From Raillietiella orientalis (taxonomy: Eukaryota), in assembly GCA_036172245.1 (NCBI GenBank), contig JAYWIR010000136.1, forward strand, positions 1 through 64,000: a stretch of DNA of 64,000 bases. The letters run 5' to 3'. Positions 1-64,000 of this stretch are shown piece by piece. Both the position numbers and the translations under genes were made by a program. Position 1 is the first letter of the stretch; each line of letters starts with the position of its first letter. The notes under the pieces were generated by a model. That model was not told where the DNA came from, did not search any database, and saw only the letters and a program-made list of their open reading frames with translations.

Positions 1-1689
1 GGGAACCCGCCTCTTCCGAGGCGGGTTGATGACCATTTTGGTTTCAGCCTCCTCAGGCACCTTGGGTACCTTTCCGGCTTCAACCCTCTCCATCTCCTCC
101 GTGTCTGTGCGTGGTCTGTCGGGTGACGATTCCCGGGATTCTCTCACGCTCATGGCACCCTCGCAGTCGGAAGTCATATCCACGCCTTCGACCTGGAGAG
201 GGGCTTTCCGGGGTTTGCTGGACTTCCTTCCAGCCTTCCGGCGGGGTGCCGCGGAGATGGAAACTTGGTTTCCGGCCAGCGCTTCGGGGTCGGAAGTTAC
301 CGACTCCTCGGTGGAGGTCGGACGCCTCACTGCCTTTTTGCCAGCCTTGGAGGGGTCTGGCTGCAGCGATGCAGCCAGCTCCTCCGCCGCACGCTCGAAG
401 GCGGCGTCATCCATCACGGTCTCGATGACGGACGCTTCCGCCGGTTCGCTCCCCACGCTGTTGACATTTTCAACAGTGGGTTGCTCGTCGGTAGCAGCGA
501 TTTCTACCTTGCGGCGTTCGGCGGGGACGCGTTCTTCGACTACGCTGCATTCTTTTAAATGCTCGCTAACCTGCTGTTTTTTATTTTGGTAGGCGAGCTT
601 TTTTTCGATTCGTCGTTCTTTCTTCGACTTTTTTTTCTTTTTCGCTGTGACTTCTTGCTATTCCAACACCTGACCGTTTTTGTCAATCTTTTCGGCATTC
701 GTTGCCGGGGTGTCGGCTGAGGCCTGGACCACGGGTGGGGGTGGCACAGCTTGAGCGGCAGCCTTCGCCGCCAGTTTTTTCTGAAGCAGCCGCGAGCGTT
801 TTTTCAGGTTCCTCGCGGAAACTACGCGCACTGCGGATTCTGGACACACTTCCTTCGTGTGGCCCATTGTTCCGCATACCAGGCACTGTACGTTGGGGCC
901 CCTTCTTTTGAGGTGTCCAGACGTGTTGCAGAAGCCACAGTATTTGGGCTTCCCCACGTACCAGAGGTCGACGCTTTCTCCGCCGACCAACAGTTTGTGG
1001 GGAAGGGTAGAGCCCTCCCGAACCGTTACACGGGCAGCCGTGAGGCCGCACTGAACAGTGGTTTAGTCCTCGAAAGGACTAGGCCTGTTCCATACTGCAT
1101 GGACCGTGCCTTATTTTCCCAACGCGGTGCGTAACTGTTCTCTCCGCATCCGCGCGGTAACTCCTGAAAGGTGTACCACCGTACTGTGGTCCGCCGTAAC
1201 GGGAAGGAGCCTGCGTGTCCTCATTACCACGGGGGTTTTAAGTTCACTTTGGACCAGATCTCCATGTTTGCAGATCACCTCTACGTACTGCCCCCCGCTA
1301 CGAATGGTCATAGCGTAAAGCTCCTCTTCTTTAACATCGAGAGCGCGCATCCCCTTCGAAAAGGCGCGCGCACTCTCAGCAGAATACAAATTTCCTACCT
1401 TGTAGAATAGTGATGGGTTATACCCCTCTTCCACATAGGCAGATAATTCTGCCGCGGCTGCAGGCGATGGCGCCGACACGACGGCTTTCCACGCCCGCGC
1501 AGCAGCGGGGAACGCTTTTGTGAGCGCGGACGCCCCCACCTCCTTCGCCACTGAGAGCGAAGTTGCCGCCGCCCCCTGGCACTCCACCTTCTCTAGAGGC
1601 AACGTTGCCGCCGCCATCTGGCACCCCATTTCTTCAGGAGGCGACGTTGACACCGCCCCCTGACACGTACTGGTGGTCGCGTGAGGCAT
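1..1689 (-). pseudogene. ORF1 gag-like zinc-knuckle protein, frameshifted
   Basis: MPHATT start at 1689; EGYNPSLFYKVGNLYS motif; knuckles CGFCNTSGHLKRR and CLVCGTMGHTKEVC; split over several frames. Confidence 0.85.
1550..1670 (-). repeat. Three degenerate 42-bp tandem units in the ORF1 N-terminus
   Basis: gttg(c/a)c(g/a)ccgcc recurs at 1562, 1604 and 1646; protein reads CQGAVSTSPPEEMG / CQMAAATLPLEKVE / CQGAAATS. Confidence 0.75.
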
Positions 1690-1783
1690 TGCTGCTTGAT
1701 CGACCACCACCACACACGAAGCCTACACCTAGGGACGGTTCCCGGCACGAGGAGCGCTGAGGAAACACGTCCGCTCTAGCCGA

Positions 1784-3673
1784 CGTAAAGCTTTCGACTG
1801 CGTCGACCAGGAGCTCCTTCTGGAGCTCCTGGAACGCTTGAGATTTCCGGCCGTCTTCCTGGCCTACCTGCGCTCCTGCTGGCGCTTCGCGTTCATGAAT
1901 ATTAATTTCAGCGGCCGGTATGTGTTCGGCTTGCCGGTTCGTCGTGCCATCCGGCAGGGTGACAGCCTCAGCCCCCTGCTCTTCAGCATCTACTTTGAGT
2001 TGCTGCTGAGAGCATGCAGGGAGACTTTGGCAACTCTGCCGAGCTCGTGTCCCGGCACGCCTGCCGTGTCGGCCTATGCCGACGATCTTCTACTCCTGCT
2101 TCCTTGGTCCACCCCGGCATCGGCGCTCGAGGATTTCTTCGAGTTACTATACCGTGGGACAGGCCTCCAGGTGAACAGGACCAAGTCGTCGTTGCTTTTC
2201 AAAGACTAAACGAGGGATGGACGGTCGGAATGGATCCGCTTGGGGATCCCCACGAGCAGGTACATCAAGTACCTAGGCATTCCGTTGGGGGACTTCTGCT
2301 CTGCAGAAGCCTGGTCCGACCGTCTACAAAAGGTGGAGCTGGCGTTCGGCCCGCTCCGGGACGGCAAGTTTCACTTGCAGGAACGGGCCATGGTATGGAA
2401 CGCTTTCGCGGATCCCCTCCTTCGCCCTTTACTTTTTCTGTGCCCTACCCTGTGTCAAATCAGGACACGGACTAGGGGCCTTATACGGAAAGCCCTCTGG
2501 GGCAACCGGAGGCCTTGCGTCCGGTTCAAAGACTTGTTCGCTCCACGCAGGGACGGTGGACTTGGTCTCCTGACGTTGGAGCGCTTAGAGCGACAGCTCC
2601 AATTTAGAATACTTGCCCTTGTGGCAAAGTTTTGCACAGCACCCTGGTTTGCACCAGCAAAACTCCTTGCTCACAGGGCAACCAGCTGCTTCGGATTGAC
2701 TTCAATCCTGGTAGCCAACGAACGCAGCCTGAACCATTGTGGTTATCAGCTGCGGGATTTGGTTGCTCTGATGAGAAACAACTTTTGGATCTCCTGCATC
2801 CCAGCGGACTGGACTACCTGGCTTCAGGAATCCGTATGCGCATGGGCTAAGATCGATGGCACCAGCGATGAGGACTTCTCCTGCATCCGCGGAGGGAGGC
2901 ACGCTGGTCAGCCACTCCAGGAGATCTTTTCCAACCCACGGATACTTCTGTGGGCTTTCTTCGCCCCCCTTGCTCCAGTGCTGCCTTCTCTCAGGTAAGT
3001 TCGGGACAGCAACCAACAGGCACCGTGGGAAGTGTCCTGCCTCATCGGAGGCAGGAAGAAATCACTGAAGGCGTGGACGCCGAGGGAACTAGCGGAAGCT
3101 AATACCCCGAGTGTCCCGCCGAACGGACTTTTACGCTGTGGCGCGCTACTCGGTATACCTCCGGAGGAGGTGAAGTGGCCCCCAGCGTCATGGGACAACG
3201 GCACCCTTTCCCTGTAGTGGAAGGAGACGGCGTTGCTTCTGCTCCACTGGGGACTTTTAAGCAGAGCACGCCTGTCTCGGGGGACATCGGGGAATGTGGA
3301 TGCTAGTTGTGCAGAGTGCGGGGAAAGGGAGACCTTCCACCACTTGATTCTGGAGTGTGTTTCCCTCCACGAAATGTGGGACAGACTCTCTTCGATTCTC
3401 AACATTCCGGAGGGTGACCCGAAAAATCTTTTCAGACGCCTTCTGACGCGAGACGGCTTGCCAGCCTCCGGGAGCGTAGCAGTGCTCTGCTGCATACGCG
3501 GTATCCTGGAGAAGTGGGCCGCGTCTAGGAGAGGAAGGACCAGCCGGAATGCCATCAACTGGGCAGCGATCTCCTTGGAGAAAGCGTGCCGTTGGCGCCG
3601 ACTTCAAAAACATTTGCCTGCACTTGTTCGGATCCGAAACCGGATGCAAAGGCCTGCTCACGACGCACCGTGA
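1784..3673 (+). pseudogene. ORF2 fragment (RT and C-terminal zinc finger)
   Basis: RQGDSLSP, YADD, KYLG and CAECGERETFHHLILEC motifs; stops at about 2207, 2996 and 3215. Confidence 0.88.
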
Positions 3674-3935
3674 TACCCTCCCTCCCTCCCCCTCCCAAGA
3701 AAACTTAGCCCTCCAAGCGTTTTTTTTTTTTGTTTTTGTTTTCTTTTATTTTTCCCGTCCCGGCGCCAGTGAAGAACCTGATCGACCTCCGGGTCGGTAA
3801 GGACAAGTGCTACTGAACTTCTGAACTGAATTTCTGACGTCGAAAAAAGAAAAATGTTAACAACATAGACTTTGTTACAAAATTTTGTAACTTCAAAATT
3901 TTAGTAATAAAAGCCCCGGCTTACCCGGGTGAAAA
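1784..3935 (+). mobile_element. 3' half of an element (RT C-terminal half, zinc finger, 3' UTR)
   Basis: Starts at RKAFDCVDQ; ends with a T-rich UTR and taataaaagccccggcttacccgggtgaaaaa. Confidence 0.88.
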
Positions 3936-4033
3936 ACCTGCGCCGGTACCACACGCGTTTTTGGTCAGCTCTCGAGAGCGAAGCCAAGACTAGGTGTTGT
4001 GTTGATTGGAAGTGCGGCCGTTCGAAGGCAGAA

Positions 4034-6990
4034 ATGCCTGAAGACGCCGCAGTACCTGCGACGGGAGATGTGAGGCCCACGTCTCCCCAATCTATGGAGG
4101 TGGGGTCATGCCCCACCAAAAAATCAGCCCCCGGCACCCCGGCGAGGGCGTGGAACAACGTGGCCGCGGCGGCTCCTTCGGACGTGGCCGCCGAAGTGCA
4201 GGCCTACATAAAGGAGGGCTACAACCCAGCCCTCCTTTACAAGGTAGGAAATCTTTATTCACCGCTTTCAACGCGGAAATTTGGAAACGCCATCCGTAGG
4301 ATGGAAATCTCTGACAAGGAGATTCTTTGCTTCTCGATTCGGAGCGGCTTGCAGTTTGCGGAGCTGATCTGCAAAGACGCAGCGCTCACACACAAACTGC
4401 TCTGCACGCCCGTTCCGTTCGAAGGGCGGAATCTCTTCTCACACACGGTGGATCACTCTATGGTGATCCACCTCACGGGTACAACGGTGCGGATGACCGA
4501 TGAAGCCATCCGCACTGAAATCAACAAATCCGCGGAGATATACGCGATGTGGTAAAAGCTTAACGCCTTTACTTATCGAGGCGCATTCAGTGGGCGAGTG
4601 GCCGCGCGCGTAGCTCTTCGCGAAAACAAAGAACTTCTTCACAAGCTTGAAGTCAACGACGAGCTCGTCGACCTCTGGTACGTTGGGAAGAAAAAATACT
4701 GTGGGCAGTGCAACACATTCGGGCATCTTAAAAAAAGATGTCCGGATGCCACATGCCCACCCTGCGGCGTGAAGGGCCACACTAGTGCTGTGTGCCCGGA
4801 GAACGCCGCGACAACGCCTTGAGCCCCTTCGACAAATAAGCGGAAGAAGGCAGAAAACCAAAAAAGACGCGACCAACAGACGACCTCAGAAGAAGTCGTG
4901 CACCAGGAGAAGGAGCCTCCAAAGGAGACTTCTGAGCCCACTGCCGAAGAGGAGAACTGGAAAGTCGTTTCAAACAAAAAAGCAAAAGAAACACACAAAA
5001 AAAAACAAAAACTCCTACAAAAAATAACAAAAATCAGAACACAAGCGTTCCGAAAAAACCCGCGGTCGGCAAGCCAAAAATTTCGCCGCGCGAGTCCATA
5101 AAGGAATCCCGTGTTACAATCCAGAGCGTTCCGTCGATCGAGCGTCGATCGGCGAACGCGACTCCCGCAACCGTCGCGAACGCCGCGGAACCGCCGCAGG
5201 AATCCTGCTACAAACACGCGAGCAGCAGCGACGAGAAAAACTTCGCGAAGGCGGCGATGCCACCCGGATACGCCGGGACGTTTATTAAAAACATTTCAAC
5301 GGTCAATACAGAACGTGGTACAAGGCCCCACTGACGGCCACGGAATGCCGGAACTGCCGGGACACCGGGACGCAGCCCGGTATGGCTCTCCACGGCAGTA
5401 AAGGGGGATGAAGGAAAAAACAAAAATAAAATAAAATAGAAAAACAAACCACAAAAATAGTTTGGAGGACCGGGAAGGGATCACAGAAAACTGCTGGGAG
5501 CGCCCATCCTTTGCAGGATGCCTTCTAGTTCCATTTTCAGCTTTCCTAGATGGGGCCATCGGATAGCTCTCTGCAGAAAGCGCGAAGCATACTCGATGAC
5601 GTCCCTCACGATGCAGTCTTCATCTTCGGCATCACTCCAGGCCGCCACGATACCACGAATGCAGCAAAGGGCTGCCAGGGCTGCGGCTGGACTGAGAGCG
5701 TCCCACACGAAGACAAGACTGACGATACATTCAACATTGCCACCATCCGGTATCCGGAGGGCCGTTTTCAGACGATCCCAAAGAATCCGGACGGCAGGGC
5801 ATTCAACTAAGAGGTGGGAAAGCGACTCCCGCTCCCCACACTTGGCACACGCAGGATTTACTCTTCCCCGCGTCCAGTGGAAGCGGCGCGCGTTGCAGGG
5901 TAGACCCCAATGCAGCCACAGAAGCGCCGATTCTTGCCACTTCAAGGGGAGAATCCTGGATCCAAGTAGAACCCGGGGCCACTTCAGGTCATCCAATCGA
6001 ATGCCGAGCAGTTCGCTCCATCTTTTTAATCCACGCGGCTGGAGACTAGGGGTCGTTGCATCTGTCAACTCTCCCATGGTCCAGCCGCTCATCATCTTCT
6101 CTCTGCCTGCGATACGGCAGCAGACTTGCCACCTTGGCTTCCGGCTTCCGTGAAGCGCCCTTTGGAGGAAGGGCAACGCCGTAACAAGGAATGTGCCTTC
6201 CGCCCACGTGCAACTCGGTGGAAATTCAAGAATTTCACGGAGTGCGGCGGGCGTATAAGCCGACTCGCAGGCAGTTCATCCGGTCTTCGCACCTTTGGTT
6301 CTGCTTATCCCAGGTGCCAGCAGTCTCTTCCAGCCAAGCGGAGAAGTTGGCAGGGCCACAAACCATCCAGTCGTTCTCCTTTGCCAGGGTTGCCATGCGG
6401 TCGAGCATTAGACCGCATCTTCGAATCTTCCGGCCAGGGCACAGAAGAAACGATGCGAGTCCTTCGCAGCGGGACACACGCCTGGCTAGGAGGCGGGCCG
6501 GAATGCACCAAGCGGTGCTCCACATCTTCGCTGCGATGGCGAGGGTCCGCCATCGCAGCTGGATTTCCACGTGAAGGCGGCGGAGGAACTCGCGGCCAGC
6601 TTAATGCAGCCGCCTAAGGCTGCAAAGAAGGCCGTCAGACGTCCGACGGAAGTTAAGGGCCCGGAAACTTCCGGGTCCGAGGCCGAAGCCGGAAACCCTC
6701 CCACCGTCGCCCTTCCGAAGAGGAAGGCGGGCCGGACGTCGCGCAACCCTATGCGCGTAGCTCCCCTTCAGGCTGAGGAGAAGGAGATGCGCTCGGATAG
6801 CGAAGAGGCGATGTCCGCCAGGTCGCGGGATGCCTCCATCGACAGCATCCGGTCGGTCCTTCCTATCGACCTCAGTCCGGCTGCAGACGTTCCGGTCGTT
6901 GCCGAAACGCCACCACCGCAGATGGACAACGACCAGCCGCCTCCCGAACAGGAGGCGGCAATACACACGCCACCACCATCACTAGTATGA
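4034..6990 (+). pseudogene. ORF1, disrupted and interrupted
   Basis: MPEDAAV start; CGQCNTFGHLKKRC and CPPCGVKGHTSAVC knuckles; internal stops; FAKAA|EELAA split by the insertion. Confidence 0.85.
5257..6572 (-). mobile_element. 5'-truncated element inserted antisense, 10-bp TSD
   Basis: TSD gaaggcggcg at 5247-5256 and 6573-6582; ORF2 C-terminus with CAKCGERESLSHLLVEC; stop at 5481; terminal hairpin. Confidence 0.9.
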
Positions 6991-7872
6991 TGCCTGGAAT
7001 CGCCTCTTGCCGGCAGCTCCGTATAGCCTGTTGGAATGTCAACGGGCTGCGTAGCGGAAGCAAGAGGCGTAACGTGGCCGACACCCTGCGAACTTTCGAT
7101 CTGGCACTTCTTCAAGAGGTGCATGCCCTGAGAGCAGAAGACGTTCAGGAAATCGAGACGCTCACAGGGGGGAGGCTACTTTGGCGTGGTGGAGGAGACC
7201 ACTCCCGCGGAGTGGCCTTCCTGCTGAAGCCAGCGGTCGCCAATGCGGTGCGCAGTGCACAGTTCGACGAGGAAGGTCGAGTCGGACAACTTGTCCTTAA
7301 GTGGTCCGAATCGATCGACCTCGTAGTCACGAGCCTGTATGCGCCCTGCACCAGCCACAGGCGCGCAGAACGCACTGCGTCCCTCGAAGCCCTGCGGCGA
7401 GAATGGCTGGCCGAAGCAGGCGTGCGGCGGGCGCATCTGATAGCGGGAGCCTTCAACGTCCGCCTGCTGTCGGAAGCGCCCGACATACGAGCACAATTGT
7501 TCAACGAGTTGTGTGCGGCTATGCACACACGCAACTTGTTGGCCGATGAAGCCGGAGCGAGAAGCAGAATCCACCACGTGTTCCTTGATAACCACTTGTG
7601 TACGCGGGTGAGGATTCGAGGAGCAATTGCGTCGGAGCTGTCCGATCACCCTCGGCTAGTGATCAACATTCATCCGCGCGACAGAGTTCCACCCTCCGAA
7701 GCGTGGCACCTGCCGGGGGACTAGTTGCGACTCGCAGGAGCGCGAGAACATCTGCGCGCATTCCTGCGTAGTTGCGAACTGCAGACTCTCGCTGACTGGG
7801 ACAAAATTAAACGCTCAGTCGGAGAGTTCTGTGACCAGTGTCCACTCCATCAACTTCCTCCAGGTTTCGGCG
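6990..7872 (+). pseudogene. ORF2 N-terminus, AP endonuclease domain
   Basis: CWNVNG, LQE and SDH motifs; the GDFN motif reads GAFN; stop at 7722. Confidence 0.88.
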
Positions 7873-8289
7873 ATGCCACCCGGATACGCCGGGACGTTTA
7901 TTAAAAACATTTTAACGGTCAATACAGAACGTGGTACAAGGCCCCACTGACGGCCAGGGAATGCCGGAACTGCCGGGACACCGGGACGCAGCCCGGTGTG
8001 GCTCTCCTCGGCAGTGCAGGGGGATGGGGGAAAAAACAAAAATAAAATAAAATAGAAAAACAAACCACAAAAAAAAAAAGTTTGGAGGGCCGGGAAGGGA
8101 TCACAGAAAACTGCTGGGAGCGCCCATCCTATGCAGGATGCCTTCTAGTTCCATTTTCAGTTTTCCTAGGTTGGGCCATCGGGTAGCTCTCCGCAGGAAG
8201 CGAGAAGCATACTCGATGACGTCCCTCACGATGCAGTCTTCATCTTCGGCATCACTCCAGGCCGCCACGATACCACGAATGCAGCAAAG
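7873..8289 (-). mobile_element. Short 3'-end fragment, same subfamily as 5257-6572
   Basis: Close copy of 5257-5670 including the terminal hairpin. Confidence 0.88.
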
Positions 8290-9508
8290 TGCCCCTCCGC
8301 CCGGGGGGGATGCAATGGTGGAGGAACCAGTGGATGGCAGCGTGGGAGCCCAAGTCGGGCATCACTCACGTGCGGAAGCCGACGAGGAGGCGACTCCAAT
8401 GGAGGAGGGTAACCAGGGGTCAGCAATGCCCTCTGAAACCGCCAAACCTGAACCACCCGCATTGAAGGATGTGGGCCAACAGGTACGAACAACACCCCCT
8501 TCGCACGAGCATCCGGAGACGTCGGCACGAAAGAAGGAGGAGGAGTTGGTGGGCAAGACGCCAACCGCGTCCAGCGACATGCGCCAAAAGTTGGCGGAAG
8601 CACCACCGCCAGGTTCCCAGGTATAACACCTGGACTCGCCTGTCGTCGTCGGATCCGCGCGGCCAGTTGGAATGTTAACAGGCTGCGCGTCGACATAAAC
8701 AGACGAGATACAGACGCCACCTTTCGAGATTTCGACCTGGTGCTTTTGCAGGAGATCCACGTTATCACCGCAAAAGACGCACAGGAGATCAAAACGATCG
8801 CGGGAGGGTGGTTGTACTGGCGATGCGGCGCCCGCAACACTTGTGGGGTCGCGTTCTTCCTAAAGCCAGCCATTAACGCGGCCGTGAAGGGCGTGCGCTT
8901 TGGGGACGACGGACGGATCGGCCAACTGATTATCAGATGGTCCGATTCGATCGACCTCATCGTCACCAATGTGTACGCGCTTAGCGGTAAACAGGGATAC
9001 CAGCAGCGCAATGTTTTACTGGGAACCTTGAAGCGCGAATAGCTGGTGGACGCGGACGTGCGAAAGGCGCATCTGATAGCAGGGGATTTCAACGTCCGTC
9101 TGCTCTCAGATCAGCACGGAGCACAGGGTGACGCGTTCAGCGAGTTGTGCGCCGCCATGCGCGCGCGCAACTTGTTGACAGAAATAAGCGGGATGGTCAG
9201 CAGCGTGGACCACGTCTTCCTCGACGAAGACCTGTGCACACGGGTTCGAAAACGAGGGACACTTGGATCGACGCTCTCGGACCATTCCCGGATATTATTT
9301 GAGATGCGCCCTCGAGACAAGGGACCGCCATCCAGGGATTGGCGTATGCCAGGGGACTGGACGCCCCTGTCAGGAGCGAAAGAACATCTTCGCGAATTCC
9401 TGCGAGGCGTCAGCCTCCAGAGTCTCGCGGATTGGGACCTATTTAAGGACTCGGTCCGGGAGTTCTGCGAACAGTTCCCTGTACAACGTCTGCTCCAGGG
9501 ATTCGGCG
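8290..9508 (+). pseudogene. ORF1 C-terminus (to 8626) plus ORF2 APE domain fragment
   Basis: SWNVN, LQE, AGDFN and SDH motifs; stop at 9040; ends at QGFG. Confidence 0.85.
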
Positions 9509-12500: not shown

Positions 12501-12525
12501 GTCCCAGTCGTTGAGATTCCGGAGC
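9509..12525 (-). mobile_element. 3' two-thirds of an element (subfamily C), degenerate ORF2 ending at 9717
   Basis: KAPGEDG, WRPITIVN, DLHKAFD, YVDD and the CARCGE zinc finger; 3' UTR and terminal hairpin. Confidence 0.88.
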
Positions 12526-44550: not shown

Positions 44551-44620
44551 TTTGCTGCTCCTGCGTTTTAGCGCGAGGTTGTAGGTTGTGTGGTGTTTGG
44601 GCGGTGTTTTGAAGGCAGAA

Positions 44621-46366: not shown

Positions 46367-46374
46367 CAACACCA

Positions 46375-53100: not shown

Positions 53101-54565
53101 TTTGCCCCGCCCTTTATTTTATTCGGAAACGAGCAGCGGGCCTCCTGAGGACAGTCCTTTGGGGCAAAGGGAGGTCCCGTGTGAGGCTCAAAGACTTGTG
53201 CGCTCCACTTTAGGACGGTGGACCTGGCGTACTTACGCTGGAGCGCATGGAACTACAACTTCGATTCAGGACTCTCGCCCTTGCGGCAGAATTGTGGGGC
53301 ACGCCTTGGTGCGTTCCAGCACGCCTCCTGGCCCAACGAGCCTGCGGAATCGGCGGACTTTTGTCGTTTCTGTCTGCGCGCGTCTGCAGAAGACCATACT
53401 GTGGCTCTATGCTGCGACGCATCTTTGTTGCGGTTCGGGAGAACGCCTGGATCTCCTGCCTCCCAGGGAACTACTCCGCCTGGTTGCACGAGTCAGTCTC
53501 CACCTGGGTAAAGATCCACGTTCCGGCGGGCACAAGGAACACTTGTATGAAAAGGCACGCCCGCTGGACGCTGCAGGAGATCGTGCAGTCCCACTACAAG
53601 CTTCTGTGGGCCTTGATAACCCCCCTCGCCCCAGTGCTGCCCTTCCTTGTGAATGCCAGGGACAGTAGCGAGCAGGGGAAATGGACCGTGTCCTGCACTA
53701 TAGGCGGCAGGACACAATCGCTAAAGGCGTGGACATCCCGGCAGCTAGCTGACGCTGCGACGCCGAGTGTCCCGCCCAACGGAATTCGACGCTGGGGCGA
53801 GCTACTCGGACTATCTCCGGAGGAGATGAAGTGGCCCCCAGCGTCCTGGAACAGTGCATCCCTCCCCCTGAAATGGCAGGATGTGGCGTTGCTTGTGGTC
53901 CTCTGGGGACTTCCATTCAAAGCACGCCTTCATCACACAACCCGGGGGGCTGTGGATCCTTATTGTGACCGGTGCAGGGAAAAAGAGACCTTCCCCCACC
54001 TTCTCATCGAGTGCAGTGCCATCCGCCCTTTATGGGATCGTCTCGCGGCGATCCTGGACTTGCGCGGATGCGGCCCAAAGGACGTTTTCAGGCGCCTCTT
54101 CTGTAGTGACGCCTTGTCCCCGCCCGCTAGTGTAGCAGTCCTCTGCTGCATCAGAGGAATAGTGGCGGCTTGGAACGCCACCAGAAGAAGGCGTCAGCCA
54201 ACCGGCAACGCCTTACACTGGACTCGCGTTTTCGCGCGAAGTGTCTGCAAGTGGCGCCACTTGGGCGCTGAAAGGACTCAGCTTGTGCGGATCCTGAATA
54301 GGATCTAGAGGACCTCTCCACGCGCACCGTGATCCCTTCCCCGCCCTCCCATCCCTACAACATTTGTTCCCCCCCCCACATTTGAACTTTTTGTTTCTTT
54401 TTGTTTTTTTTTATTTCCCATCCTCGCGCATCGGAAGGACCTCTCCGGCACGGAGCCGGTAACCAGCAAGCTGTTATGGAGTGGTGAACCTTCGGGTTCG
54501 CCACGCGACAATTTTTCTGTTAGTTTATTTCTATGAAATAAATGCCCCGGCACATCCGGGTGTGA
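50197..54565 (+). mobile_element. H/G-type element: ORF1 C-terminus (to 50742), ORF2 and 3' UTR
   Basis: Resumes after the TSD at VTSPSADD; ends aaataaatgccccggcacatccgggtgtga. Confidence 0.9.
50751..54308 (+). pseudogene. Near-intact ORF2 (APE-RT-zinc finger, ~1185 codons), one in-frame TAG at 53211-53213
   Basis: The 820-aa and 353-aa ORFs are in the same frame; all catalytic motifs are present. Confidence 0.92.
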
Positions 54566-54574
54566 ACGACCGTA

Positions 54575-54726
54575 TTTCCCATCCCCGCGCATCGGAAGGA
54601 CCTCTCCGGCACGGAGCCGGTAACCAGCAAGCTGTTATGGAGTGGTGAACCTTCGGGTTCGCCACGCGACAATTTTTCTGTTAGTTTATTTCTATGAAAT
54701 AAATGCCCCGGCACATCCGGGTGTGA
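54575..54726 (+). repeat. Tandem copy of the terminal ~150 bp of the 3' UTR
   Basis: Nearly identical to 54414-54565; separated by acgaccgta. Confidence 0.92.
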
Positions 54727-54737
54727 ACGACCGTAAA

Positions 54738-54926
54738 GTGAGAGGACGTGTTTTTCGGTGCTTCCGAAAACCGTCTTTTTTGCGAGTGTCGGTGTTTTTC
54801 TAGGTGCGGTCGTTCCTGGGCAGAAATGCCCGAGGACACCGCCACCACGGCGAAGGGGGGCGAGCGAGCCTCGTTCCCCCAACCCATGGATGTGAGGGCC
54901 ATCTCCCCCACGGATTCGGGTGTGAA
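54738..54926 (+). mobile_element. Subfamily G 5' end fused to a 10-nt 3' terminus (mini-element)
   Basis: Matches 40226-40405, then cgggtgtgaa at 54917-54926. Confidence 0.7.
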
Positions 54927-56309
54927 CAACCCGCCGCCGCGCGAACGCCGACGCCGCGACAAAGTCGCGAGCCCAGCGTGAGCAGCGACGATCGGGACTT
55001 CAACAAGGCGGCGGAAGAGTTGGCAGCTATGCTCCAGCAGCCTCCCAATGCCCAGAAAAAGTCCTTGAGGCGTCCGGCTGAGGCGAATGGACCGGTGACT
55101 TCCGAGTCCGAAGCCGAAGCCGGCAACGATCCGGCTGTCGCTCTCCCGAAGCGCAAATCGGGCCGAAAGGTAGGCAACCCGCGGCGCTCCCCACCTCCAC
55201 CGGCGGAGGAAAAAATGCGGTCGGACCACGACGACGGGGAGGCGATGTCCGCAAGGTCTCGCGACTCCTCGCCGGAGACGTCCCTGGCAAAGCAGGGTCA
55301 TCCAACCACCACCACAACCACCGACGGACCGCCTCCTTGCGAGCAACAGCCCGTCGCAATGGATACACAACTCCCGCCTGCTGAACAGCAGGCGGAGGAC
55401 GGTAAGCAAGCACAATAAACACACCAACGCGTGGACTCTCCTCCTGCCGGCGACAGCGCGTAATCTGTTGGAACGTCAACGGGTTGCGCGACGACGGCAA
55501 GAGGAGAGAAGTGGCCGCCAGCCTGCGGGACTTCGACCTGGCGCTTTCGCAGGAGGCGCACGTTCTCCACGCAGGGGAGGCCCAGGAAATCGAACGGATT
55601 GCAGGCGGGCGGCTCGTATACCAAAACGGGAGAGACCACACCCGCGGTGTGGCTTTCATGCTGAAGCCAGCCGTCGTTGATGCGCTGCGCGACGTGCACT
55701 TCGACGGGGAAGGTCAAATCGGGCAGATTGTTGCCAAGTGGTCCGACGCGATCGACCTCGTCGTGACAAACGTGTACGCGCCCGGCGCGAGCCACAGGCG
55801 CGGGGAACGCACTGCGTTCTTCGAAGGCCTGCGGCGAGATTGGCTGGCCGAAGCAGACATGCGAAAGGCGCACCTCATTGCCGGGGACTTTAACGTCCGC
55901 CTGCTGGCAGGTGCGCCCGACATTCGCGCACAGCTGGTCAACGAGATGTGCGCTGCCATGCACGCGCGCAACTTGTTGGCCGGTGACGCCGGGACGAAGA
56001 CGAGGATCGACCACATGTTCCTCGACAACCACCTGTGTTCGCGGGTGGGAAATCGAGGGGCAGTGCCATCCGAACTCTCCGACCATCCCCGGCTCGTGCA
56101 AGAAATACACCCGCGCGGTAGAGGTCCACCCTCCACAGCGTGGCGTTTGCCAGGGGACTGGTTGCGCCTCGCAGGAGCAGCGCAACATCTTCGCTCGTTC
56201 CTGCAAGGCTTCCATCTGCAGTCGCTCGCGGACTGGGACGACTTGAAGAGCTCAGTCCGCGAGTTCTACGACCAGTTTCTCCTTAACGGTCTTTCTCCAG
56301 GTTTCGGCG
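54927..56309 (+). pseudogene. J-like ORF1 C-terminus (to 55418) plus ORF2 APE domain (from 55427)
   Basis: FNKAAEELAA in ORF1; CWNVNG, GDFN and SDH in ORF2; cut at PGFG. Confidence 0.88.
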
Positions 56310-59167
56310 TCATCACTCGGGTACGCCCGGGGCGTTTACTAATAAACTTTACATGCGTGGTACAAGGCCCCACCACGGCCGTAAACACAGGACCTGTCGG
56401 GACATCGGGACGCAGCTTGGCGTGGCACTTCCCGACAGCGAAAGGGGATGAGGGGAAAAACAAAAAGAAAAATAAAGAAATAAAAAAAACAAAAAAAGTT
56501 TGGAGGGCAGGGTAGGGATCACTGGTCGCTGTGAGGAGGGCCCATCCTTCGAAGAAAGCCCTCGAGGTGTCTCCGCATATCTCCCAGTTGGGGCCATCCG
56601 GCAGCTCTTCGCAAGAAGCGCTGGGCATACGGGATGACATCCCTCGCCTGTGGACCCACTCCTTCGTTATTGGCGTCGCTCCATGCCGCCACGATGCCAC
56701 GGACGCAGCACAAGGCTGCGATGGCTGCGGCTGGCTGCAGGGCGTCCTTCACGAAGAGGGGCCGAAGAACGTCTCTGGGAATGCTGCCCGTAGGGAGCCC
56801 TCGGTTCGCCCCGAACCGTTCCCAGAGGGGTCGGATGGCAGCACAGTCCACAATAAGGTGAGGAAGCGACTCCCGCTCCCCACACCTGGCACACGCAGGA
56901 TCCACAGCTCCCCTCGTCCAGTGGAAGCGGCGCGCGTTGCAGGGTAAACCCCAGTGCAACAAAAGCAACGCCGACTCTTGCCACTTGAGGGGCAGGATCC
57001 TGGATTCCTTCATCACCGGGGGCCACTTCAGCTCATCCCTGGGGATGGCGAGCAGCTCGCCCCATCTTCTTAGTCCTCGCGGCTGGACGCTCGCCATCGT
57101 GGCGTCGGCCAGTTCTCCTGTTGTCCGGCCGCTGATCAACTTCTGGCGTCCCTCGATGCAGTAGGAGACTTGCCACCTTGGCGTCCGGGTGCTGTGAAGT
57201 GCCCTCCTTAGGAAGGGCAGCGCCGTAGCTAGGCAGGTCGTCTCTGCCCACGTGCATCTTCCTGGACTCTCCAGGAGATTCCGCAGCGTGCAGCGGGAGT
57301 AGGGGCTGCATCGAAGACGATTCCGCGTCTCGTGGCTTCTCTGGTTAACCACTGCCCACGTTCAATATTCTCCTCCAGCCAGACGGGGGAGTTGGCGGGG
57401 CAGCAAATCATCCAGATGTTCTCCTTGGCCAATGTTGCGATGCGCCCGAGCAGTAGGCCGCATCTTTGCATATTCCGGCCACGGCTCACAAGATAAGACG
57501 CGAGTCCATTGCACCGGGACACACGGCAGGCCAGGAGGCGGGCCGGAGTGCACCAATGGGTGCTCCACATCTTCGCTGCGATGGCGAGGCTTCGCCACCG
57601 CAGCTGCTTCTCCACGCGCTCCAGCGTCAGGAGGCCGAGACCGCCGTACCGACGAGGAGCGCTTAAGTCATCTAGAGGCAGACGTGGCCTCCCTCTGCCC
57701 CAGAGGGCGATGCGAAGTAGGTCCTTGGTCCTCTTTTTAACGTCACGGGGGACGGGGCACACTAAAAGCAGGGGGCGGAGGATGGGAGCCGCGAAGGCGT
57801 TCCACACCGCGACCCGTTCCGGCAGAAGGAACTTGCCTTCCAGGAACGGGCCGATTGCCAACTCTACCTTCTGGAGACGACCTGACCAGGCTTCTGCGAG
57901 GCAGAAGTCCCCTATCGGGACACCCAGGTACTTCAGGTACCTGGCCGTGAAGATCCCCAAGCGGATCAAGTCAGGCCGTCCGACCCACGTCGCACCCACC
58001 GGTACGACCGACGACTTCGCCTTGTTTACCCGCAATCCAGTCCCACGACTTAGCAGGTCGAAGAAATCCTCTACTGCGGCTGCCGGGGCGGACATGGGCA
58101 ACATGAGCAGAAGGTCGTCGGCGTATGCTGCTATGGCGAGCGTGCCGGGGCACGAGCTGGGCAGGGCAGCCAAAGTCACCCTGTACGCTTTCAGCACCAA
58201 CTCAAAGTAGGTGCTGAAGAGCAGGGGACTGAGGCTATCGCCCTGCCGTATGCCCCGTCGCTCCGGCACGCCGTACACCTGTTGGCTGGAAAAGACGATG
58301 TTGACAAAGGCATTGCGCCAGCATGAGCTCAGGTAGGAGAGAAGGAAGGGTGGGAAGCCCATGCGACCCAGGAGCTGCAACACTAGCTCCTGGTCTACGC
58401 AGTCGAACGCCTTGTGGAGATCAACGGCGATCGCTAGGGCTCCCTTCCCAGCCCGGGTATCCATTCCCAGCCCAGCTGGCGGTCCCAAAGTGGGGTTGCC
58501 AATGTTTCCCCCTGTTTCCTTCAGGCAAGGCTGCACATGGAACCATGTGCTCGCGAAGAACAGGTTGGCATCCATACTTCGCCCGGGAACAGCGTATGTC
58601 TGCTCCGGGCTAATTATGGAGTCTGCCACCTGTCCTCTACGCGAAGCTCACAGTCCAGCGATCAGCTTGGCGTCCGTATTCACATTTGTGATCGGACGCC
58701 AGTTGCCTAGGGATCTCAGGTCCCCTCCCTCCGGGAGGAGCCTCACACGGGCTGACCGAAACGAGGCGGGAACGTCGCCTTCGTCTCGGATCAGCCCGGT
58801 CAACTGGAGCACCAGGGAAGCCAGCTCTGTCGCGAAGCATTAAAAAAATTCCGAAGGAAGGCCGTCCTCCCCTGGCGCCTTACGCCTCTTAAGCCTTTTA
58901 ATACCGGCGAGAATTTCACCGGTAGAAAAAGGCTCGTCGGGGCTGATCCTCTCCTCCTCCCCTATTGCCTGGCCTCCGTCCGGAAGCAGGAGCCGCTTTC
59001 GGGGCAGGTGCCCCTATCTCCATGGGTACGGGGGACGTTCGCCCGGCCCCCACCCCACATTCACTAGTGGCGGGATCTGGCATTTCTGCCATCCCCCGAC
59101 CACTGATGCACCGCACTACACCAATAAAGTCGAACGAGTCAGAAGCGCGCAGAGAACACGTCTGAAC
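56310..59167 (-). mobile_element. Subfamily C element: 3' UTR, ORF2 RT and zinc finger (stop at 56519), joined near 58990 to a 5' end with ORF1 start at 59083
   Basis: YADD and CARCGE motifs; CAGACGTGTTC and GCAGAAATG at the right end. Confidence 0.85.
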
Positions 59168-59829
59168 GTCGGCACTGCTGGTGTTGCATTGGGGGCTTCC
59201 TTGCAACCCCCGCCGACACCACTGGACGAAAAGGGGTGTCAACCCTAATTGTGTCAGCTGCGGGAGAGAGAATACCTCCTCAACCAGTTAGTGGATTGTG
59301 TTGCCCTCCGTCGCTTGTGGGAACGCTTTGCCGCAGCCCTGGGGATCCCCGGAGGCAACCCCTGAGACGCTTTGCGCCCCTTCTTCGTCCGTGACGCCCT
59401 GCCTCCAGCGGCCTCGCTTGCAGCCTTGTGCTGCCTACGCGGGATCGTCGTGGCATGGAGCAAAGCGACGGGAGGATCCAGCGACGGGGATGCCAGCGTG
59501 TATGCCGCCCGTTTCCTCAGGATGGCGACGCGATGGCCCCATCTGGAACCACACAAGCAGAAACAGCTTGCCGGCATCCTCCAGAGGATGACGGACCGTA
59601 CCAGCAGACTGTGATCCCTTCCCGATCATTCCCTGATTTTTGTTTATTTTTTGTTTTCTTTTTGTTTCGTTCCCCCTCCCCTCTGCTGCCGAGGTCGACC
59701 GCGCCGGTCTGCGCACCGGTAGCCCGGCAGGCTATATCTTTCCAGGGCGTGGCAGGACTACTGGTCCAGTCACAGATTGTATAGGTTTATTCCTGAGAGT
59801 AAACGTCCCGGCGCACCAGGGTTTCAATG
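59168..59829 (+). mobile_element. 3' fragment of subfamily E
   Basis: Homologous to 23346-24007. Confidence 0.9.
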
Positions 59830-59842
59830 GAGAATCCGGAGC

Positions 59843-62800
59843 GTCGAGCGGACGTGTCTTTTCGTTGCTCCTGAGTTTCATTTCCGTTGGTGCTTGTGCG
59901 TGGTGTGGGTGGAGGATTAGGCAGCAATGCCTCATACCAAAACCGGTGAGCATCCGGGGGCGATGACCTCATTGCCCCCGGAGGAGATGGAGGTGGGGGC
60001 TCCCGCATCAGTGGAGGCTTCCGCCAGCATGGATGCGCCCCGGCCCTACCCAGGGCTTGGAACGCCGTGGCTGCGGCACCTACGCCAGCAACTATGGCGG
60101 AAATGCGCGCTTACCTGGAGGAGGGGTATAACCCACCCCTTCTATATAAGGTAGGCGGTTTATATTCTTCCGAGAACGCGCGCGCCTTTTCGCAGGCGAT
60201 GCGCGTTCTCGGTGTACAAAAAGAGGAGCTTCTGGCTATGTCCGTCAGAAGCGGGGATCAATTTGTGGAAGTTATCTGCAAGAAGGTAACTCTTGCGCAG
60301 AGACTTCTGCGAACCCCCGTCATTAAGGGCAGCCGGAGGCTTCTCCGCATTACTACAGACCGGTCGTTGATCATTCACCTGACCGGTATCACGTTACGAA
60401 TGACGAAGGTGGCCGTCCGGAACGGATTAAAAAAATTTGCAACTGTCCACGCGCTGTGGGGAAAGTCTACTCCTTTTGTCGATTACGACGGGGTGCTTGG
60501 CGGCCTGGGTACAGCGCGAGTGACGGTTCGCGAGGGACGTGAGTTTCCCCACAAACTCACCGTCAACGGTGAATCGGTTGACGTATGGTACGTAGGAAAA
60601 CCCAAGTTTTGCGCCTGCTGCAGCAGCTTTGGCCACCTTAAAATGAGGTGTCCGAGCGTGCAGTGCCAGCAATGCAAAAAAGCGGGGCACACCCGTATGG
60701 TGTGCACCCAAAACACAGTCCGCGTCGTGTCCGCGAAAAACGCGAGAAAGCGCGCGGCTAAAAAGAGAAAGAAGCTGGCAGCTCGTGCTGCTGCTAAGGA
60801 GGTCACCTCCGCCACCAAGGCGAAGGCCAGCCCCGAGACCCCGGCGAAAACCGCCGAAAAGGTCGAGGGCGAGGGTCAAGAGCCAGGGTGGCAAAAGGTC
60901 GACCCCAAGAAAAAATTCCATAAGAAGGGAAAGAACGTGGCGAAACGGAGCGAAACCGCTCTGCAACGCGAAAAAATTAAAAGCTGCTGCGTCGTTGTAG
61001 AGCGGATTTCCGCCATCGACGAATGCGGCGCTAAAGAACTCGCCGCTGCCCCTGCTCAACCCTCCGTTGACAAAGTCCACAAGGAGGGGAGCGAGACGGC
61101 GGCTTCCGTCATCGAGCCCACGCTCGATGACGTCGCCTTCGAGAGCGCCGCGGAGAAGCTGGCTCTCTCGTTGCAGCCGGTTGCCCCCAAGTCTGGCAAT
61201 CCGGGTCGTCCAGCTTGCTGGACGACCAGGGCCGGGAATGTTCGTCCCCGGCGTCGGTACGGCATCTCGTGCGGAGTTATTATTTCTCCCTTTACGCCAG
61301 GGCGCCCCCGGATCAAGATGCCTCTCGGCTCTTGCTTCCGGATGGTGCCCCGGCAATAGGGGGGGAGGAGTGGTTAAGCCTCGATGAACCTTTTACCACC
61401 GGCGAAATTCTCGCCGGTATCAAAAGGCTCAAGAGGCGGAAAGCTACAAGGGAAGACGGCCTTCCCGCGGAGTTCTAACAGAGCTTCGCGGAAGAACTGG
61501 CACCCCTACTGCTTCAGCTGACAAGGCTGATCCGACACGAAGGCGATGTTCCCGCCTCGTTTCGGTCAGCGAGAGTGAGGCTCCTTCTGAAAGGGGGAGA
61601 CCTTAGGAATTTGAACAACTGGCGTCCGATCACGATTGTGAATACGGTCGCCAAGTTGGTTGCCGGGCTATTGGCTTCGCGTCTGGGGCAGGTGGCAGAA
61701 TATATAATTAGCCTGGAGCAGACATATGCTGTTCCCGGGCGAAGTATGGATGCCAACCTCTTCTTCGCGAGCACATGGATGCACGCCCAGAGGTGTCAAA
61801 AGGAAGGGAAAGGAAAAATCGGTAACCCCACTTTAGGGCCGCAAGCAGGGCAGGGAATGGACTCCCGGGCGGGGAAGGGGGCCTTAGCGCTCGCAGTCGA
61901 TCTCCATAAGGCGTTCGACTGTTTTGACCAGGGGCTTTTGCTGGAGCTCCTGGTTCGCATGGGCTTCCCACCCTCCTTGATTACCTACCTGCGCTCTTGC
62001 TGGCGGAATGCGATTATCACCATCTTTTTCAGTAGTCAGAAGGTGTATGGCATGCCGTTGCGGCGAGGCATCAGGCAGGGAGATAGCCTTAGTCCCCTGC
62101 TCTACAGAACCTACTTTGAGTTGGTGCTGAGAGCCTACAGAGTGACTTTGGCCTCCTTGCCGAGATCGTGTCCCGGCACGCCCGCCGTAGAAGCCTTTGC
62201 CAACGACCTTCTGCTCCTGTCACCTATGTCCACCCCGGCTTCGGTGGTCGAGAAGTTCTTCGATCTGCTCAGCCGTGGGACCGGACTGCAGGTCAACAGG
62301 GCGAAGTCGTCGGTGGTGCCAGTAGGTGCGGCGTGGGCAGGGCAGCAGGACTGGGTCCGTCTGGGGATCCCCACGGCGAGGTGCCTCAGGTACCTTGGTG
62401 TGCCGTTGGGTGACTACTCCCCTGCGGAAGCGTGGTCCAGCTGTCTTCAAAAAGTCGAGACGGCGATCGGCCCGTTCCTGGAAGGCAAGTTTCACTTGCC
62501 GGAACGGGCCGCGGTTTGGGACGCCTTCGCGGCCCCCATCCTCCGCCCCTTGCTTTTTGTTTGCCCCGCCCCCAGAGAATGCAAAAAGAGGAAGAAGGAC
62601 CTCCAGAAGATGGGAAGATGTTAAGCGGCTGGACCACAGGAGAACTGGCGGACGCCACGACCCCGAGCGTCCAGCCGCGTGGACTAATGAGATGGGGCGA
62701 GCTGCTCGCCATCCCTACGGATGTGCTGAAGTGGCCCCCGGTACTAAAGGAATCCAGGATCCTGCCCCTTAAGTGGCAAGAGTCGGCGTTGCTACTTCTG

Positions 62801-64000
62801 CACTGGGGTTTACCCTGCAACGCACGCCGCTTTCACTGGACAAGGGGAACTGTGGATCCCGAGTGTGTCAGGTGCGGAGAGCGGGATTCGCTCTCCCACC
62901 TTATTGTGGACTGTGCTGCCATTGGACCCCTCTGGGAACGGTTCGGGGCGACCCTGGGGCTCCCTACGGGCAGCACCCCCAGAGACGTTCTTCGGCCCCT
63001 CTTCGTGAAGGACGCACTGCAGCCAGCCGCAGCCATCGCAGCCTTGTGCTGTGTCCGTGGCATCGTGGCGGCATGGAGCGACGCCAACAAAGAAGGAGTG
63101 GGTCCATACGCGAAGGATGTCATCCCATACGCCCAACGCTTCATGCGGAGAGCTGCCGGATGGCCTCAACTGGGAAATATACGGTCGGACCTCGAGGGCT
63201 TCCTTGAACGAATGGGCCCTCCTCACAGCGGTCAGTGATCCCTTCCCTGCCCTCCAACTTCTTTTTGTATGTTTATTTTTTTATTTTTCTTTTTGTTTTA
63301 TCCCCATCCCCCTTCGCTGCTGAGGAACGCTACGCTGGGCTGCGTCCCGGCGTCCCGGCAGGTCCAGTGCATATGGCCGTGAGCGGGGCCTTGTACCGCG
63401 GATGTAGAGTTTTTTAAAAATAAACGCCTTGGGCGTACCCGGGTGTAAACTCACAAGGCTGGCAAGAAGGCCGTCAGGCGTCCGGCTTCCCCTCTGGAGT
63501 CGGCCACTTCCGACCTCGAGGTGAAGGCCGGAAACACAGCATCCATCTCTGCGGCACCCCGTAAAAAGGCAGGACGAAAGTCCACAATGCCCCAGAAGAT
63601 CGTCTCCCCCGACGAAGGGGAAGAGATAGCTTCCGCAAGCGAGGGTGCCATGAGCGTGGGAAACTCCCGGGACCCGTCGCCCGAGAGAATTCCACGCTCG
63701 GACACGGAAGGGATGGTGAGGATGGAGGCCGAACAGGTACCCCAGGCGCCTGAAGAGGCCTCCGTCCTCGTTCCGATGGTCGTCGTACCGATGGTCCTTT
63801 CCTACACCTGCCCCGCGGCAGGTGCCGCGACGCCACTTTCCCAGCCATAATGCCGGGAATAGCCTCTCGCCGTCGTCTTGTGAGCGCTTGTTGGAACGTG
63901 AACGGGCTAAGCGACGACGGCAAGAGGCGTGACGTAGCCGCCACCCTGGCATCCTTCGACCTGGTGCTGCTGCAGAAGATCCACGTGATCTGTGCAGATC
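59843..64000 (+). mobile_element. Subfamily D element (ORF1 59927-63850, ORF2 from 63850), interrupted at 61200-63453
   Basis: Homologous to 12526-14418; TAATG at 63848-63852. Confidence 0.88.
61200..63453 (+). mobile_element. 5'-truncated subfamily C element inserted in sense, 12-bp TSD with one mismatch
   Basis: caagtctggcaa at 61188-61199 and caaggctggcaa at 63454-63465; RT with YADD changed to FAND; internal deletion near 62610; stop at 63238. Confidence 0.87.

Follow-up and report, generated by a model that had tools for sequence, protein, structure and literature searches.

How does a long stretch of a chromosome come to consist of one kind of retrotransposon, and what keeps it that way? 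Centromeres composed only of long interspersed nuclear elements (LINEs), the Zepp and ZeppL type, are known, and how such arrays stay pure is not settled. The question is raised by positions 1 to 64,000 of contig JAYWIR010000136.1 (assembly GCA_036172245.1) from Raillietiella orientalis, the 64 kb referred to here as the window. About 27 insertion units of a LINE lineage, representing at least 12 subfamilies, are interleaved on both strands, and the array continues past both ends. We read the window as an interior piece of an array longer than 64 kb, in which one lineage of the L1 superfamily lands preferentially in or on its own relatives, and we put the probability of this reading at roughly 0.6.

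The interest lies in testable insertion rules, not in a LINE cluster as such. The clues are at the level of single bases: a recurrent target within the lineage's own coding sequence, a strong antisense bias and tail-to-head joins that are exact down to the first base transcribed. Were the same patterns to recur across the genome, the domain would be shown to be maintained by self-homing at sequence level and by template switching, in addition to any chromatin preference, and the array would be a natural example of many diverged subfamilies under purifying selection in one genomic niche. Should a genome-wide census fail to bear them out, this is merely another repeat-rich heterochromatic block.

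Composition of the window and nature of the element

Reference translations were taken from the window itself, open reading frame (ORF) 1 from 44585-46366 and ORF2 from 50670-54308 (1,212 codons, one stop). Using these, tblastn finds homologous pieces on both strands from one end of the 64 kb to the other. Non-self matches to 23 ORF1 or ORF2 translations from different copies (tblastn, E<=1e-4) cover 89.7% of the bases, and blastn places a paralogue elsewhere in the window for 91.5%. On reading, the 28 uncovered gaps of at least 40 bp appear to be junction zones between 3' and 5' untranslated regions (UTRs), together with the variable middle of ORF1. Among the 248 stop-to-stop ORFs of at least 110 aa, the longest 150 were compared with Pfam; 27 gave matches, to four families only (RVT_1, Exo_endo_phos, zf-CCHC and zf-RVT), and this set of ORFs revealed no other class of transposable element (TE) and no host gene in the window. 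Tandem Repeats Finder detected neither a satellite nor a telomere-type repeat in the window, its sole report being two copies of a 161-bp element 3' end, and the 64 kb contains no tRNA. The G+C content is 54-63% across the window. At the level of sequence these comparisons confirm that all 64 kb belong to a single LINE lineage with an apurinic endonuclease (APE) and a reverse transcriptase (RT), copies of which are inserted into and joined onto each other. A preliminary description of the window had proposed one clade of about ten subfamilies throughout; the single clade is borne out and the number was a fair estimate, there being at least 12 lineages under ~80% nucleotide identity.

Full-length copies measure 5,653-5,929 bp (F17, A and F10; designations as in Table 1), and the element T1, split by F10 into F9 and F11, totals 5,566 bp. 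ORF1 carries two CCHC knuckles (zf-CCHC). An AlphaFold model of ORF1 from a five-row alignment has an RRM-like order of strands and helices at a pLDDT of 54, too weak for a fold search. The domain order in ORF2 is APE, RT, zf-RVT. Matches to Exo_endo_phos, with E values as low as 9e-16, and to RVT_1, as low as 2e-24, fall within the same ORFs, and zf-RVT is found in seven ORFs at E values of 1e-6 to 6e-4, one match lying above the Pfam cut-off (29.7 versus 27.5 bits) and the others slightly under it. The RT was compared with the sequences of solved structures in the PDB and matches human L1 ORF2p at 1e-44, as against 6e-16 or weaker (about 1e-16) for R2. This supports placing the lineage, on sequence similarity, among the APE-type LINEs of the L1 superfamily, the L1 side of the L1/Tx1 affinity that had been suggested from the letters alone.

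The two ends of the element are well defined. A motif, GGACGTGTTT, with an ACGTG core lies 7-22 nt downstream of the first base and is clear in seven of nine aligned 5' regions, the deviants being F3 (ACGCGT) and F14 (degenerate). It may be an internal promoter or initiator. Examples at 5' starts are seen at 44530-44560, 12513-12545 and, on the minus strand, 20340-20358. The ORF1 start codon has a conserved GGCAGAAATGCC context. The other end is formed by a 3' module in which two hairpins, TTTATT-n4-AATAAA and CCCGG-n5-CCGGG, precede a tail of 5-14 nt. Scans with the terminal hairpin motif located 16 of the 17 element 3' ends and the seventeenth, that of F8, was read at its junction. The CCCGG-n5-CCGGG hairpin folds in 13 of 16 terminal slices; it is shifted in F24 and F28, and the F8 slice is misplaced. 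None of the 17 ends carries a poly(A) tail or A-run of the kind that goes with a relaxed, L1-like 3' end.

The ratio of nonsynonymous to synonymous substitution (dN/dS) is 0.16-0.44 in 54 of 55 pairs of RT regions, and the subfamilies therefore diverged while functional, under purifying selection. The exception, A versus F17, has a dS of 0.005, which marks a DNA-level duplicate. Judged by their substitutions, the subfamilies are shown to be parallel lineages that were formerly active.

Insertion sites, orientation and joins

What do the copies adjoin? All 17 element 3' ends in the window border on another member of the lineage, and the earlier statement that every identified target is a clade member holds. 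Seven 3' ends abut an antisense interior (F4, F6, F8, F10, F13, F15 and F24) and eight meet a same-strand 5' start without extra bases, giving the tail-to-head joins F2-F3, F11-F12, F16-F15, F17-F16, F19-A, A-B, F22-F23 and F25-F26. Of the remaining two, F28 runs onto the sense interior of F29 and B onto a 3'UTR fragment, F22. The 5' start is kept in 16 of 27 insertion units, where that of B and F16 consists of seven bases only, AGTGACG, and might alternatively represent a target duplication.

Three insertions have both flanks inside the window: F4 within F3 and F5, F27-28 within F26 and F29, and F10 within F9 and F11. F4 is bounded by a target-site duplication (TSD) of 10 bp, GAAGGCGGCG, and F27-28 by one of 11 bp, AAG(T/G)CTGGCAA, the uninterrupted form of which is visible in F9. 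The target coordinates on either side of F10 are contiguous. From the structure of their junctions the insertions are shown to be target-primed, with intact 3' ends, 5' truncations and clear 10-11-bp TSDs in two of the three cases with two flanks.

The recurrent target lies in ORF2. Eleven ORF2 copies include a conserved ...LPPGF-GEG... stretch in the region coding for the linker between APE and RT, and the site at codons G-F-G is intact in seven of them (F8, F10, F11, F16, F17, A and B) and broken in four (F5, F7, F23 and F19). On the sense strand F5, F7 and F23 stop at ...GGnTTCGGCG^ (7872, 9508 and 56309), and next to these breaks stand the 3' ends of antisense F6, F8 and F24, respectively. 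F19 starts at CCAAGGGCTTCGGTG (41583) and its upstream neighbour is the complete 5' end of the antisense element X. The overlap of left- and right-type flanks is compatible with a target duplication of 13-15 bp. Subfamilies G and E supplied three of the inserts; the fourth is X, the 5' region of which looks closest to that of F24. Since the targets belong to different subfamilies, F7 and F23 having 65% nucleotide identity, the events are independent; the same low identity led us to reject the idea that F7+F8 and F23+F24 are one duplicated composite. In simulations at least four of ten random breakpoints on 5,650 bp fall within 15 bp of each other with P = 1.4e-5. A short motif alone does not explain the choice of site, because TTCGGCG occurs 25 times and CGGCG 291 times in the window and TTCGGCG is used at three places only. 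F4, another subfamily G copy, likewise landed after ...GGCGGCG^.

Orientation is similarly biased. Together with the 5' junctions of F1 in F2 and of X in F19 there are ten interior insertions, nine of them antisense to the target (P = 0.011).

The tail-to-head joins represent at least six independent events; A-B and F17-F16 copy one junction, and F11-F12 and F25-F26 may also copy one. The chance that six of 15 junctions fall within 3 bp of a same-strand 5' start is P ~2e-15. Subfamily D starts at the same base, GAGATTCCGG, in F9, where the flank is the interior of an element, and in F12 and F26, where it is a 3' tail. This constancy across types of flank indicates that the tail-to-head joins are base-precise. 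Part of the overall pattern is tandem joining and DNA-level duplication, not nesting. Comparable joins can be produced by double insertion at one site or by retrotransposition of a read-through dimer RNA, as described by McGurk and Barbash (PMC5932611), and tandem dimers of R1 can form when one site is hit twice (PMC5932611). Double insertion would be the favoured explanation if the units were separated by a TSD, but no such duplication is evident between tail-to-head units in the window.

Several observations weigh against preferential landing in relatives. The G-F-G site accounts for four of the ten interior events, and most insertion sites share no common motif, the primers ending in ...GGGAG, ...TCGTT, ...ATTCG and ...GCCTT. 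The sole sense-oriented interior insertion, F27-28, is a copy of subfamily E that entered at a different site. Of the 15 bases in the duplication flanking F10, just nine match. Tail-to-head joins are expected not only from template switching but also from double insertion and from read-through dimer RNAs. Every copy spanning at least 800 codons of ORF2 has one or more stops or frame changes, and no intact ORF2 is present. For all four G-F-G junctions the partner flank is absent from the window, which needs either a nest five to seven deep whose right-hand closings have been lost, or large target deletions. Finally, where everything is LINE every target must be a LINE, and within this window self-homing, targeting of a domain and passive accumulation are inseparable. 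The suggestion in the preliminary description that the lineage uses relatives as its landing site is supported by the hot spot, the orientation bias and the precise joins, and the part of it that relied on every target being a relative is in part trivial.

The simplest reading of these junctions is a deep nest, F5 > F6 > F7 > F8 > T1-F12 > F13 > F14, with each insert in the preceding one. Its right-hand closings would have been lost where an inverted duplication begins, at ~29-30 kb. Twin priming or two-sided target-primed reverse transcription could account for the head-to-head junctions and is not needed if each insert entered the preceding one.

Formation of the array and parallels elsewhere

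Is there a process that could produce these rules? As part of our preferred reading, the RT probably recognises the shared 3' hairpin module, a 'stringent' 3' end, and changes templates readily. On reaching the 5' end of a LINE RNA it would move to the 3' module of a second one and so generate base-precise heterologous dimers, and the same switching within or between templates would generate 5'-complete deletion copies. The sense strand of resident copies might lie exposed where homologous LINE RNA has formed RNA:DNA hybrids with the DNA, to give one example, and then be nicked and used as primer; that this exposure causes both the antisense bias and the self-preference is conjecture. In a fuller model some subfamilies would recognise the G-F-G codons in the ORF2 of relatives, nick the sense strand and insert antisense. 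Taken as a whole, a self-homing LINE with a template-jumping RT, in which a dozen competing subfamilies build and renew a LINE-only domain acting as centromere, in an organism not known for one, is a model we regard as rather unlikely.

The principal competitor does without self-recognition. LINEs may be directed to, or survive only in, a centromeric, heterochromatic or low-recombination domain, with nesting as a by-product; segmental duplication and gene conversion would then have enlarged the array. The absence of a common motif at most target sites is in keeping with this, as are the mosaic 10-kb inverted duplication and the 161-bp tandem copy. In Chlamydomonas a single ZeppL insertion in unique DNA can bind CENH3 (bioRxiv 10.1101/2025.03.28.645958), and LINE and domain can accordingly be linked without self-homing. 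On its own, however, domain targeting does not predict four independent breaks at one ORF2 site (P ~1e-5), nine of ten insertions antisense or base-precise tail-to-head joins. Neither does it fit an array without any other TE class, given that clusters in Chlamydomonas are ~60% ZeppL (PMC9940879). We consider domain targeting or passive accumulation a possible explanation, held with low confidence.

The same-orientation runs F19-A-B-F22-F23, F2-F3, F11-F12 and F25-F26, with tail-to-head and tail-to-truncated joins, bring to mind serial joining at a chromosome end or healed break, as with HeT-A/TART or with Zepp on Chlorella minichromosomes, followed by internalisation. Such junctions have been described for telomeric LINEs by McGurk and Barbash (PMC5932611). 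HeT-A and TART in Drosophila differ in having a uniform orientation at chromosome ends, and telomeric arrays are without interior insertions, whereas strands alternate throughout the window and interior antisense insertions carry TSDs. Telomere-type repeats were not reported by Tandem Repeats Finder, and the complete 5' starts are joined base-precisely, without the erosion expected at free ends. Terminal addition is therefore improbable as the origin of the array, and preferential landing in relatives remains our preferred reading.

That reading has precedents in green algae. In Coccomyxa subellipsoidea C-169, Zepp (61% GC) forms 26 clusters, ranging in size over 1.5-42 kb, with a single cluster on each chromosome (PMC3446292). 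It targets existing copies, mostly the 3' ends of which remain owing to 5' truncation (PMC8226300, citing Higashiyama 1997). ZeppL-1_cRei of Chlamydomonas reinhardtii is a single family forming one localised cluster per chromosome (PMC9940879, bioRxiv 10.1101/2025.03.28.645958). These clusters span 51-320 kb, with ~60% ZeppL and other TEs (PMC9940879); CENH3 is bound to them, and a full-length copy is longer than 8 kb (bioRxiv 10.1101/2025.03.28.645958). Nested clusters of the L1 elements Zepp and ZeppL are putative or CENH3-bound centromeres in Coccomyxa and Chlamydomonas (PMC3446292, PMC8226300, PMC9940879, bioRxiv 10.1101/2025.03.28.645958) and the components of Chlorella centromeres include L1 elements (PMC11005252). 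The parallel with Zepp drawn in the preliminary description was apt (PMC3446292, PMC9940879), and by analogy with Zepp and ZeppL a centromere role for the array is plausible.

The window shares with Zepp a nested cluster of LINE copies that have existing copies as their target, as all 17 of the 3' ends attest, and a similar GC content (61% versus 54-63%); few or no transcripts have been detected, a further likeness. The Zepp clusters differ in being 1.5-42 kb in size, compared with an array of more than 64 kb and at least 12 subfamilies, and in consisting mostly of 3' ends, compared with 16 of 27 units with a 5' start. Zepp ends in a poly(A) tail, which the window elements lack. ZeppL-1_cRei is likewise an L1-type LINE cluster, but of a single family with elements >8 kb and with Dualen LINEs mixed in, whereas the window is LINE-pure with many subfamilies and elements of 5.6-5.9 kb.

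Tx1-clade elements insert site-specifically in other repeats. As in these and in R1 of the rDNA, a short target is reused here, with a 3' junction that recurs at the same base. Unlike them, specificity in the window is partial, with four of ten interior events at G-F-G and the rest scattered, and the target is the relatives' own coding sequence, entered antisense. Hebe, a subtelomeric LINE of the rotifer Adineta vaga, reportedly has copies inactivated by internal deletions that keep the 5' end. Similar 5'-keeping deletions are seen in F15, F23, F24 and B/F16; Hebe is from another organism, however, and in the window true 5' truncations are common (F4, F6, F8, F13, F22, F25 and F27).

Nested L1-type clusters are already known, and what sets the window apart is its purity, its many diverged subfamilies, its many 5'-complete units, its elements without poly(A) and its antisense-biased hot spot in ORF2. 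In the excerpts of the Zepp and ZeppL literature consulted, which do not extend to the original Zepp papers, there is no mention of a hot spot in an element's own ORF2 with antisense bias; this hints weakly that the combination is not previously in print.

Later rearrangement, subfamilies and minor observations

The array did not stay as transposition left it. The 10-kb arms of the inverted duplication are 94.7% identical overall and form a mosaic of 81-99% in 500-bp bins, indicative of gene conversion or recombination with other copies. Between them there are 260 transitions and 236 transversions. F19 is 98% identical to F16 in the left arm and ~91% to B in the right arm, suggesting gene conversion among these copies. 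The interior-to-interior junction F18|X at 41357 points to rearrangement, not insertion. As read from the copies themselves, duplication, mosaic gene conversion and interior-to-interior junctions are shown to have reshaped the array after transposition.

Might the locus be an artefact, a collapsed or chimeric long-read assembly of dispersed copies that includes a fold-back palindrome? A repetitive region with an inverted duplication is hard to assemble. The arms, however, differ by 1-19% in mosaic fashion, unlike the near-identity of a fold-back read, and for this reason we rejected an artefactual palindrome. Subfamilies 55-80% identical are separable by assemblers. In addition, short contigs from one DNA sequencing run (X1), which contains 0.43 of the words sampled from the window, match all 30 bins of 40001-60000 at 95-100% identity; the contigs listed, the longest ones, are 368-686 bp, speak to presence and related variants only, and may come from the source sample, so that they are not independent support. 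We regard misassembly as very improbable. The identity of 42 of 125 X1 contigs is at least 99%, and that of the other 83 is 95-99%, the latter indicating more copies of these subfamilies elsewhere. Among the sequencing runs listed as containing sequence from the window there was no RNA run.

Internal segments have been lost with the 5' start retained in F15, F23, F24 and perhaps B/F16. The 575-bp deletion in F27-28 carries nine filler bases. The F23 deletion (54915-54931) contains some 12 filler bases, GGTGTGAACAAC, whose likeness to the tail at the 3' end of subfamily B, GTGAACGACC, may have been left by template switching. A tandem pair of the terminal 161 bp of B (54412-54735), 99% identical, represents either a minimal 5'-truncated copy added exactly at the B 3' terminus or a slippage duplication. 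The segment 29099-29164 matches 54931-54996 at 92%.

Nucleotide identity was compared in four regions (RT, C-terminus, ORF1 and APE), and subfamilies are 55-80% identical to each other. Group A comprises A and F17 (98% mutual identity). Members of group B (B, F16, F19 and F22) are 90-97% identical, and relative to A they are ~90% identical in the RT region and 77% in the C-terminus. F2 is the single copy of group C. Group D contains F9+F11, F12, F25 and F26+F29 (92-95%), and group E contains F8, F27-28 and F24 (76-92%). F10 (subfamily F) and F13, one copy each, are 79% identical in the RT region. F4 and F6 of group G have identical 3' ends, F4 being 66-69% identical to group E in the C-terminus, and F18 and the 5' part of F23 (group H) have near-identical 5'UTRs. 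F3+F5 and F14, one element each, are 73% identical in ORF1; F1, F7 and X are singletons. The coordinates are collected in Table 1.

Table 1. Insertion units and related features of the window, in order of position (aa, residue numbers of the encoded protein).
Feature	Positions	Strand	Description
F1	1..1786	-	Complete 5' start (5'UTR and ORF1), GGACGTGTTT; tblastn ORF1 aa 34-266, 455-537; 3' part beyond left window end, 5' end adjoins F2 interior, antisense
F2 (subfamily C)	1787..3937	+	ORF2 aa 562 to 3' end; tail GAAAAAC directly onto F3 5' start
F3	3938..5256	+	5' start to ORF1; left half of element split by F4
F3 left TSD, GAAGGCGGCG	5247-5256	+	
F4 (subfamily G)	5257..6572	-	5'-truncated, ORF2 aa 860 to 3' end; antisense in ORF1 of F3+F5
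F5	6573..7872	+	Continues F3 (right TSD 6573-6582); ORF1 C-terminus to ORF2 aa 328
F5 end	7872	+	GFG hot spot, ...GGTTTCGGCG^
F6 (subfamily G)	7873..8291	-	Short, 5'-truncated; 3' end at F5 GFG site
F7 (own subfamily)	8292..9508	+	Presumed ORF1 C-terminus to ORF2 aa 325; stops at GFG hot spot; bases 8292-8565 without cross-match in window
F8 (subfamily E)	9509..12512	-	ORF2 aa ~300 to 3' end at F7 GFG site; 9 in-frame stops
F9 (subfamily D)	12513..14429	+	5' start to ORF2 aa ~80; left half of T1
F10 (subfamily F)	14430..20358	-	Full-length, 5,929 bp, antisense in T1; ORF2 open for 895 codons
F11	20359..24007	+	Right half of T1, ORF2 aa ~80 to 3' end; tail TTTCAATG onto F12
F12 (subfamily D)	24008..25174	+	5' start to mid ORF1; split by F13
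F13	25175..27900	-	ORF2 aa 371 to 3' end; antisense in F12 ORF1
F14	27901..29165	+	Degenerate 5' start to ORF1 aa ~440
F14b	29174..29306	+	Small ORF2 fragment, aa 553-597; split by F15
F15	29307..30092	-	Internally deleted; ~100 nt of 5'UTR (29993-30092) fused to ORF2 aa 1065-3' end
Inverted duplication	30094..40112 (left arm), 44527-54568 (right arm)		Found by blastn
F16 (subfamily B)	30093..34459	-	Seven 5'-start-like bases, then ORF1 aa ~425 to 3' end; within left arm
F17 (subfamily A)	34460..40112	-	Full-length, 5,653 bp; 98-99% to A over most of its length; left arm
ORF1 fragment, 112 bp	40113..40224	-	Between F17 and F18 5' starts; 31-nt match (90%) to F18 ORF1, inverted
F18 (subfamily H)	40225..41357	+	5' start to ORF1 aa 356; interior-to-interior junction with X
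X	41358..41582	-	5'UTR and ORF1 start; 5' end adjoins F19 GFG site
F19 (subfamily B)	41583..44529	+	GFG site (CCAAGGGCTTCGGTG...) to 3' end; tail GAAAACGC onto A 5' start
A (subfamily A)	44530..50189	+	Full-length, 5,660 bp; ORF1 open, ORF2 with 2 in-frame stops
B (subfamily B)	50190..54574	+	Reference copy; AGTGACG, then ORF1 aa ~425 to 3' end; ORF2 1,212 codons, 1 stop
F22	54575..54735	+	161-bp repeat of B 3' end, 99%; tail-to-3'UTR
F23	54736..56309	+	Subfamily H 5' start to ORF1 aa 43, deletion, ORF1 aa ~415-ORF2 aa 320
F23 end	56309	+	GFG hot spot
F24 (subfamily E)	56310..59165	-	5'UTR and ORF1 start fused to ORF2 aa 403-3' end, at F23 GFG site
F24 5'UTR and ORF1 start	58995-59165	-	
F25 (subfamily D)	59168..59829	+	ORF2 aa 1073 to 3' end; tail onto F26 5' start
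F26 (subfamily D)	59830..61199	+	5' start to ORF1; left half, split by F27+F28
F26 left TSD, AAGTCTGGCAA	61189-61199	+	
F27+F28 (subfamily E)	61200..63454	+	ORF2 aa ~355-825 and 1016-3' end; internal 575-bp deletion
F29	63455..64000	+	Continues F26 beyond right window end; right TSD AAGGCTGGCAA at 63455-63465

Observed/expected ratios over the whole window are 0.99 for CpG and 0.55 for TpA; even at this density of repeats CpG is not depleted, hence there is no CpG-decay footprint of long-term cytosine methylation, and decay resembling repeat-induced point mutation is unlikely at these values. In-frame stops in ORF2 number one in B and in F19, two in A and in F17 and nine in F8. A variant genetic code was considered for the in-frame stops and rejected, as TGA (21), TAG (19) and TAA (19) all occur, at many different residues. 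Sixteen of the 59 in-frame ORF1/ORF2 stops are at tryptophan codons, six of these being TAA; TAA from TGG takes two G-to-A changes, and some stops may be a single site in duplicated copies.

A library of 1.8 billion representative proteins yields a best match of 67% identity, followed by one of 36% and others of ~30%. Word-indexed protein searches gave two and nine matches, unnamed or fungal 'hypothetical' proteins, and an Atlas search with the homologue P0003 returned mixed taxa, a TX1-named cluster scoring 0.88, below threshold. Eight metagenome loci at 24-32% identity are too distant for testing the junction rules.

A few contigs from sequencing runs X1-X3 overlap the window by ~30 bases (e.g. 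59636-59667), beyond which their sequence is A+T-rich and does not resemble the window; they probably reflect fortuitous matches of low complexity or the presence of a second organism in the sample. One short X1 contig links 46435 to 50930, an A-type 5' part followed by B-type ORF2, which indicates a recombinant or differently arranged copy elsewhere in the X1 sample.

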